Shown: one piece after another, positions 31,411-32,195 of the stretch
Position numbering within the stretch: position 1 is the stretch's first letter
Layout: the number at the start of each line of letters is the position of its first letter
DNA from: a virus
Taxonomy: Duplodnaviria; Heunggongvirae; Uroviricota; Caudoviricetes
DNA length: 52,323 bases
Virus record (IMG/VR): IMGVR_UViG_2563367002_000003
Strand: one strand, 5' to 3'
Position numbers and translations under genes: made by a program
Notes under the pieces: model-generated
Database searches by the model: none
Told to the model about the DNA's origin: nothing
What the model saw: the letters and a program-made list of their open reading frames with translations, nothing else

Positions 31411-31481
31411 TTAAAGTTTTCCTGCAATCATCACGATGATGTTTGTCCATGGTGATGGCAACAAAAAACGCCAGAAGGCGG

Positions 31482-32090
31482 CTATAAAATGTGCTCTAGA
31501 ATCCGCATATTTCCTTCAAAAAGTATTTCCTTTTTTAACGGATCAACTATTTCACCACTCCAATATTTATGAGCTTTTTCTAAGGCAATATCATACGGTA
31601 TATCGTCATTCATCAAATGTTCATCACTCGCCTCATGTATAACTCCATCCAGCTCAACTCTGAACACAGTCTGATTGTCCCCCAATCCCAACTGCGAAAT
31701 CCAATAGTGAAGACTTTCTTCACCTTGTGAAACCCATAAGCATTTCTGTCTTGAAGGCTTTTTTGGGTAATATTCAACTCGAACGGCTTCCCAAATCAGT
31801 TCTCTAGTATATTTACAAAAATGCATAGCCAATTCTTGACCAACTGCCGCTATATCCTGTACAGAACACTTAGTAGTAAGTGACCCTGTCTTTAGGCCAT
31901 AAAGCCACTGCATTCTCGTATAGTCAGTTAGATGCCCGTTAACATTTACTGGTATTGGAGGGATGTTTGAACTTAAGAAATAATTAAAAAAGGGATTTGG
32001 GAATGAGGTGCTAGCTAAATCTCCTACTGCCAAAGGCCTATACTTAACCCAAGGATTTTGCGATTTAGTTGCTATGTAAAAATAGTCCAT
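31482..32090 (-). CDS. hypothetical protein (AT-rich moron between lysis cassette and packaging genes)
   Basis: 202-aa ORF, visibly AT-rich compared with flanking genes; weak SD; no family recognised. Confidence 0.55.
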   Translation of the reverse strand: MDYFYIATKSQNPWVKYRPLAVGDLASTSFPNPFFNYFLSSNIPPIPVNVNGHLTDYTRMQWLYGLKTGSLTTKCSVQDIAAVGQELAMHFCKYTRELIWEAVRVEYYPKKPSRQKCLWVSQGEESLHYWISQLGLGDNQTVFRVELDGVIHEASDEHLMNDDIPYDIALEKAHKYWSGEIVDPLKKEILFEGNMRILEHIL

Positions 32091-32195
32091 GCGTACTTAC
32101 CACTATAAAAAAGACACCTTACCACTATATTTTACACAAGCAACCAACATTTAGCAGCACCTATTCGCAATAACTATTTATTCCAGCAAAAGAGT

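Follow-up and report, generated by a model that had tools for sequence, protein, structure and literature searches.

A DUF2441 protein with a probable ADP-ribosyltransferase-type fold is encoded in a late-operon cargo slot of an Escherichia coli prophage

What kind of gene does an Escherichia coli prophage carry between its lysis and its packaging genes, and what might the gene product do? The question is raised by IMG/VR virus record IMGVR_UViG_2563367002_000003 (Caudoviricetes), a stretch of 52,323 nucleotides which was analysed at its full length and is referred to here as the window. In the ORF list of the window, this position is occupied by a minus-strand open reading frame (ORF) at 31482–32090, which encodes 202 residues and has an ATG start and a TAG stop codon. 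The original prediction, made from the letters of the DNA, had called it a moron. We found that it encodes a conserved, selected, stand-alone protein of the ADP-ribosyltransferase (ART) fold, which is carried in late-operon cargo slots, has no partner and is unrelated to lysis and packaging proteins. The AT-rich gene and the hairpin at its 3′ end form a self-contained cargo cassette in the post-lysis, pre-packaging slot of a lambdoid, SfI-like E. coli prophage.

The ORF had been described as lacking any recognisable motif, which proved wrong. The Pfam family DUF2441 (PF10386) matches residues 90–179 with 44.2 bits (cutoff 25; E 2.5e-11), PHROG 9842 matches over the full length of the protein, and RefSeq lists it as ‘DUF2441 domain-containing protein’ (WP_000384431.1). 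The structure of BC2332 from Bacillus cereus (PDB 2AUA) was matched with E 2.9e-9 by the single sequence and with E 8.5e-34 by a 106-sequence profile, and was the sole match in the profile search of the PDB. The homology and structure search by which the prediction was to be checked led to DUF2441 and 2AUA; homology to packaging proteins, which would have spoken against a moron, did not turn up, nor did homology to lysis proteins. The window protein and BC2332 share about 20–23% identity and differ at a position in strand 1, where BC2332 has His and the window protein Tyr. As BC2332 is itself of unknown function, the match names a family and not an activity.

In SCOP, structure 2AUA bears the class d.166.1.6 (‘BC2332-like’), part of the ADP-ribosylation superfamily (PMC3000352), DUF2441 belongs to the ART clan of Pfam (PMC7955679), and in a ProFunc template analysis the 2AUA site matched that at which diphtheria toxin performs catalysis (PMC3024214). 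Fold tests of the window protein returned both the 2AUA-type three-dimensional fold and the split-sheet fold of ARTs. We regard membership in the DUF2441/BC2332-like family as established and membership in the ART superfamily as supported at the fold level; the protein very probably adopts the ART fold. A search of the literature for the accessions or PHROG identifiers found no mention of them.

An exhaustive profile search (E ≤ 0.001) yielded 1427 DUF2441 clusters at 50% identity, nearly all of them single-domain proteins of about 200 residues. All 106 members subjected to a relaxed Pfam scan matched DUF2441 and no other family. The longer relatives P0139, P0073 and the ORF of locus L021 likewise contain no second Pfam domain, and P0159, which is half DUF2441 and half DUF4276, looks like a truncation or a chimera. 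A degenerate DNA pattern for E-x3-E-x-[VI]-R-x7-P-S-R-x2-C-x-W retrieved two true DUF2441 genes among the 120 matches listed, the remainder being chance matches, mostly in GC-rich genomes. Residues N32, E97, E101, R104, W130, Y176 and W177 are invariant across 106–166 diverse members, at least 90% of which share R96, P112-S113-R114, W119, G149, A173, G179, E188 and G193. The window protein retains all of these, its sole departure from the family being Tyr at position 5. Comparison with a 78%-identical copy gave a ratio of non-synonymous to synonymous substitution rates (dN/dS) of 0.06, with dS near saturation, indicating strong purifying selection on the Tyr-bearing genes. This ratio, together with conservation down to 41% identity, rules out a non-coding or decaying ORF. 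Neither a signal peptide nor a transmembrane segment was seen by eye in the window protein which, as far as can be judged from its sequence, would be cytoplasmic. A secreted toxin is unlikely, given that no signal peptide was seen and that there is no gene for a B subunit.

The order of motifs was compared by eye with that of Arr and found to run in parallel: a strand-1 F-x-H, a V/I-G-D-x4-G hairpin and an aromatic strand (C-L-W versus I-Y-F in Arr), then a Trp-bearing helix, a Gly hairpin and a final strand opening with Glu. This order points to a candidate triad Y5(H)-W119-E188; recognised ART triads read H-Y-E/D/Q, R-S-E or H-H-h, and the first position of the candidate is Tyr and not His. 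We infer the residue mapping onto Arr, for which hhalign gives no statistical support, as comparison of the DUF2441 family profile with ARR-2 resulted in a probability of 2%. The Arr proteins (PDB 2HW2 and 9IAF; ARR-2, 9IBA) show no significant sequence or profile similarity to the window protein, and only DUF2441 has a large charged helical insertion, which comprises about 70 residues and carries the R-E-x3-E-x2-R and P-S-R motifs.

The locus itself is as AT-rich as had been claimed. The guanine-plus-cytosine (GC) content of the DUF2441 ORF is 0.381 (0.33 at third codon positions), compared with 0.50 for Rz, 0.52 for lysozyme, 0.56 for HNH and 0.59 for TerS; that of the entire window is 0.476. 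Equally AT-rich windows of 609 bp make up 11% of the 52-kb window, most of them in an AT-rich island at 1–10 kb. On the minus strand, the gene order is Q antiterminator, three tRNAs, holin, YdfR, lysozyme, Rz/Rz1, DUF2441 ORF, HNH, P27-family TerS, TerL and portal, so that the predicted placing of an AT-rich 202-residue ORF among GC-rich flanks, between lysis genes and HNH/terminase, is borne out. The coordinates given for the ORF (31482–32090, strand unstated) are right, but the wider span given with them (31436–32195) has a start that coincides with that of an antisense plus-strand ORF of 68 residues (31436–31642), for which no sign of coding was seen. The window represents an E. coli prophage adjoining tRNA-Ser and mtfA, and a near-identical prophage is present in NZ_OZ546984.1. 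The features of the locus are as follows.

31482–32090, minus strand: DUF2441/BC2332-like coding sequence of 202 residues with a probable ADP-ribosyltransferase-superfamily fold (ORF, Pfam and PDB match)
31463–31480, minus strand: terminator-like hairpin with U-tract; stem 31480–31477/31472–31469 (CGCC/GGCG), loop TTCT at 31476–31473, T6 at 31468–31463
31440–31461, minus strand: TTGCCATCACCATGGACAAACA, just 3′ of the hairpin; near-identical sequence follows the hairpin in loci L015 and L017 (flanks placed side by side)
32091–32195, minus strand: AT-rich spacer of 105 nucleotides, GC content 0.35, from the Rz stop codon to the ATG (sequence)
32096–32107 and 32118–32129, minus strand: two exact 12-nucleotide direct repeats, TATAGTGGTAAG on the coding strand, 22 nucleotides from start to start (repeat search)
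32196–32678, minus strand: Rz i-spanin, ‘lysis protein’ in RefSeq; conserved upstream flank of the slot (ORF)
32237–32443, minus strand: Rz1 o-spanin, embedded in Rz (ORF)
31060–31410, minus strand: HNH endonuclease, followed by P27-family TerS; conserved downstream flank of the slot (ORF and RefSeq annotation)
34269–34518, minus strand: three tRNA genes between Q and holin (Arg, Arg and Ile according to the matching RefSeq record)

The hairpin begins two nucleotides past the stop codon and has a stem of 4 bp, with a folding energy of −6.6 kcal/mol; it falls below the threshold of the terminator scan, which was set to a 5-bp stem. In six homologous loci (L008, L013, L014, L015, L017 and L018), CCGCC-N4-GGCGG and a T-run stand directly after the stop codon. 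The stems of these hairpins are identical, with 7 bp and −10.9 to −12.8 kcal/mol, while the loops read TACA, TTCG, TACG, TCCG, TTCA and TTAT. The stem was kept although the proteins have diverged to 41–47% identity. Since synonymous sites are saturated between the homologues and the stem is still conserved, the hairpin is probably under selection, and gene and hairpin probably travel together. The window copy is the weakest, the last G of the stem having been lost, and is a weakened version of the family-conserved hairpin; the weak terminator predicted behind the ORF is real, and ‘weak’ describes it accurately. The stretch at 31440–31461, with its near-identical counterparts, probably marks the 3′ edge of a mobile cassette.

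Does the slot itself carry cargo? Between the same Rz and HNH flanks, other prophages hold iss/bor (an O157:H7 strain, where it is read from the other strand), an ORF of 50 residues or a DUF6979 gene (phage SfI), the iss-carrying and SfI versions being flanked by the same HNH gene. The DUF2441 version was found in 50 of 5426 complete E. coli genomes. The differing genes between the same flanks, together with this occurrence, make the slot a genuine cargo site, as had been predicted, and the gene in it is compositionally foreign. Further enterobacterial phages, whose packaging modules are unrelated, have homologues with 41–78% identity, and the GC content of these genes is 0.38–0.42 in genomes of about 0.5. 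In four loci (L004, L014, L015 and L017), an Rz gene with 64–94% identity is located upstream of the homologue. Nine distinct phage backgrounds were compared. In all of them the gene points in the same direction as the late genes, and in eight it follows the spanin genes, lying directly after them in L008, L011, L013, L014, L015/L017, L018 (Cronobacter phage phiES15) and L026. The ninth, L012 (IMG/VR UViG_3300036828_000654), has a 47%-identical homologue at 5989–6615, between a Q-like antiterminator and the holin, without the CCGCC/GGCGG hairpin; this is the slot of stx in Stx phages. The post-lysis slot of L008 (6934–9307), the phage of the 78%-identical homologue, holds in addition a glycosyltransferase of 485 residues (phrog_1579, category ‘moron’), which indicates that several cargo genes can be stacked in one slot. 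Outside the enterics, the gene adjoins an integrase (L149) or a gene for an HD-CE/HATPase protein (L024), or is located in a mobile-element-like region (L151) or in ordinary chromosomal surroundings (L148). No recurring neighbour or antitoxin-like ORF was found beside DUF2441 genes in the contexts examined.

Most phages with the same lysis and packaging modules lack the gene, which makes a lysis or packaging component unlikely, and we hold an accessory function to be the likely one. Morons, in the usage of Hendrix and colleagues, are recognised by variable presence, foreign base composition, a terminator of their own and, as the defining feature, a promoter of their own with expression from the repressed prophage. 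The first two apply here, and so does the third, since hairpin and T-run are kept in six divergent homologues and are present in a weak form in the window; for the fourth, the scans described below found no consensus promoter. The lambdoid moron cassettes (bor/iss after Rz, stx between Q and S) resemble the DUF2441 cassette in slot, foreign composition and attached terminator. The iss gene occupies exactly the Rz–HNH slot in the O157:H7 prophage, but on the strand opposite to the late genes, and bor/iss have their own promoter. The DUF2441 gene, co-oriented with the late operon and without a detectable consensus promoter, is closer to the stx arrangement than to that of iss. Of the moron reading as a whole, foreign cargo, variable slot and hairpin have stood, the supposed lack of a motif has not.

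Signals for independent expression are scarce. The spacer at 32091–32195 contains only weak promoter-like hexamers (CTGCTA-17-TAAAAT, and TATAGT twice), and no strong Shine–Dalgarno sequence was seen in it by eye. The consensus scan of the window revealed no sigma-70 consensus promoter on the minus strand. The best promoter-like score in the spacer is 8.5, a value reached by 35% of random 225-nucleotide windows, and upstream of ten homologues the best scores are at background as well. There is no Rfam match within 31200–32400, and neither of the spacers flanking the DUF2441 gene contains a small ORF on the same strand that might encode a partner or antitoxin. The distance from spanin stop codon to ATG is about 30–40 nucleotides in four homologues, and the upstream regions are not conserved. 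Each copy of the 12-nucleotide repeat holds the −10-like TATAGT, and one copy ends five nucleotides ahead of the ATG. The repeat is present in the near-identical copies L004–L007 and L010 and absent upstream of divergent homologues; an operator or a minor duplication would be possible explanations.

How might the protein act? We propose that its ART cleft would accommodate NAD+ or a ligand of the ADP-ribose type. The cleft would be formed by strand 1 (with Tyr5, where most relatives have His), the strand containing C117-L-W119, W130 and Y176/W177. Catalysis would fall to Glu188, with which the last beta-hairpin begins, and ADP-ribose would be passed to an acceptor held by the helical insertion with R96/E97/E101/R104 and P112-S113-R114. 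The charges of the insertion suggest a phosphate-bearing or nucleic-acid acceptor. The gene always runs in the direction of the late operon, with hardly any promoter to itself, and most of its expression would therefore be expected in the lytic phase, from the late transcript antiterminated by Q. The hairpin would halt non-antiterminated transcription before it reaches the HNH and terminase genes. The protein would serve the phage in conflict with its host or with competing phages, either in counter-defence or in host takeover. Binding of an NAD-type ligand appears reasonably likely, and late-operon expression as the main mode is slightly favoured; for catalytic transfer of ADP-ribose, our confidence stops just short of even. 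The chain as a whole, from fold through ligand, catalysis and late expression to the role in conflict, is put forward tentatively.

Published work on phage ARTs provides a setting for this proposal. Their genes often adjoin those for terminase and portal, and host hijacking or the countering of immunity aimed at the packaging machinery have been suggested as their roles (PMC9503650). By analogy, a late-cargo reading of DUF2441 would match this clustering near packaging genes. T4 Alt, ModA and ModB as well as AcrIF11 are also phage-borne ART-superfamily proteins of phage–host conflict, some of them encoded near head or packaging genes (PMC9503650; PMC12421852). They belong to other ART families than DUF2441: T4 Alt and Mod are assigned to the R-S-E clade (PMC9503650), the motifs of which were not seen in the window protein. 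DarTG, RES-Xre and ParST/MbcTA consist of two genes each, including an adjacent antitoxin gene, whereas no partner is conserved beside DUF2441 genes.

Several observations weigh against the proposal. Position 5 is His in 134 of 166 family sequences and Tyr in the window protein. Most close enterobacterial relatives also have Tyr5, and the His/Tyr change arose at least twice. By eye, the His at this position may be equated with the strand-1 NAD-binding His of Arr and diphtheria toxin, and with Tyr5 catalysis may be altered or lost. The catalytic residues as such were assigned by eye from motif order. Papers that mention the family do so only in passing, and a literature search turned up no biochemically or genetically characterised DUF2441 member. 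No PADLOC family (PADLOC-DB v2) matched the DUF2441 protein at E up to 1. Finally, a conserved terminator is hard to square with purely Q-antiterminated transcription and hints at an undetected promoter.

It is here that a classical moron has to be considered, a single gene for defence or superinfection exclusion, transcribed in the lysogen from a weak, AT-rich and possibly H-NS-controlled promoter of its own up to its own terminator, such as an ART that stays inactive until set off by a superinfecting phage. The conserved 3′ hairpin, relevant solely to RNA polymerase without the Q modification, is the best argument for it. The 105-nucleotide AT-rich spacer with its −10-like hexamers and 12-nucleotide repeat, which could be an operator, fits as well, as does the use of the slot by iss/bor, a conversion gene expressed in the lysogen. 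The family is also found in cargo positions of other mobile elements, such as beside an integrase, and recognised defence cargo is present elsewhere in the same prophage. In addition, a Salmonella DUF2441 gene is among the differentially expressed transcripts when the transcriptome of a mutant in the regulator yhjC is compared (PMC9867438). However, there is neither a consensus promoter here nor a conserved one among the homologues, four of which begin only about 30–40 nucleotides past the spanin stop codon; independent expression would not require the late-operon co-orientation seen in all nine contexts; and the absence of PADLOC matches and of an antitoxin or sensor partner speaks against defence. 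We consider this explanation unlikely, though worth keeping in view. The substitution at position 5 leads to another alternative, a non-catalytic protein of the ART fold whose role would be to bind or sequester a macromolecule or a compound derived from NAD, e.g. as a sponge for ADP-ribose-based immune signals. Replacement of the near-invariant His by Tyr at least twice in the enterobacterial clade, in spite of strong purifying selection, would agree with this, and stand-alone genes without partner suit a binder. Retention of Glu188 and of all other invariant polar residues is more typical of an enzyme, and the alternation of His and Tyr between close relatives suggests that the two are interchangeable rather than that function was lost, which makes a pseudoenzyme improbable.

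The parallel to Arr raises the question whether the gene could be a lysogenic-conversion gene for a small-molecule ADP-ribosyltransferase inactivating an antibiotic or a diffusible toxin. The window protein has no match to Pfam Arr-ms, which was hit by one of 106 members at E 0.076; the hhalign comparison was not significant; and the insertion of about 70 residues, rich in invariant Arg and Glu, is unlike a pocket for a hydrophobic drug. Nothing points to an antibiotic substrate for DUF2441 either, and such an enzyme is highly improbable. The position immediately upstream of the co-oriented HNH, TerS, TerL and portal genes would be in line with a virion-associated effector, packaged and injected like T4 Alt, or with an accessory that aids or protects the HNH–terminase machinery. 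But most phages with the same HNH/terminase module lack the gene; its neighbours include terminases of unrelated types, in one phage it is placed between Q and holin, and fusions to MuF or portal domains do not occur, so that we give this explanation very little weight. A more far-reaching version of the proposed late-operon ART would make DUF2441 a functionally new branch of the ART fold, a single-protein factor for counter-defence or exclusion with an undescribed target or chemistry; for instance, the R-E-x3-E-x2-R/P-S-R insertion might hold a nucleic-acid or phosphate acceptor for ADP-ribosylation. We regard this as a speculative option with rather low probability.

The prophage carries further features of note. 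Its recognised defence cargo is a RosmerTA pair on the minus strand (37223–38979) in the nin-like region, consisting of RmrA (37223–38368; helix-turn-helix and M78 peptidase; PADLOC E 5.5e-102) and RmrT (38365–38979; PADLOC E 7.5e-10), and thus belongs to the early region and not to the late slot. An intact minus-strand ORF of 932 residues (39579–42377) combines a Cap4-type dsDNA nuclease domain at the N terminus, which also matches LmuA weakly, with an AAA ATPase domain and a SEC-C motif at the C terminus, and is probably a single-protein defence candidate; in the near-identical prophage of NZ_OZ546984.1 the gene is split by an ISEc52 insertion. The AT-rich island (window 1–10000, GC content down to 0.30) adjoins the tail-fibre end. 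The matching RefSeq record annotates RepL, two H-NS-family paralogues, a helix-turn-helix regulator, a ComEA-family protein and several DUFs in it. The island may be a separate integrated element, and H-NS paralogues beside AT-rich cargo could be relevant to silencing. According to the reference annotation, the tail-fibre region has an ISEc52 copy at 11413–12582 with a frameshifted transposase, and a truncated stfP. The integrase near 50270–51320 is annotated as frameshifted in the matching record, and by this annotation the prophage is probably defective.

The locus is ordinary prophage cargo in a known cargo slot. Gene and family have already been catalogued, the element is not of a new kind, and the analysis demonstrates no new mechanism; as an experimental lead, the DUF2441 gene is moderately interesting. 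ART-fold proteins are recurrent weapons in the conflict between phage and host, as exemplified by T4 Alt/Mod, AcrIF11, DarT and the RES toxins. The DUF2441 family is of considerable size, includes a solved structure and has no assigned function; in temperate phages of enterobacteria it recurs at both classic cargo sites of the late operon. If the protein is an active enzyme, identification of its target would give DUF2441 a function and explain the strong purifying selection on the gene and terminator cassette. Should the family indeed form a new branch of the ART fold, the E. coli prophage copy would be a tractable entry to some 1400 sequence clusters.
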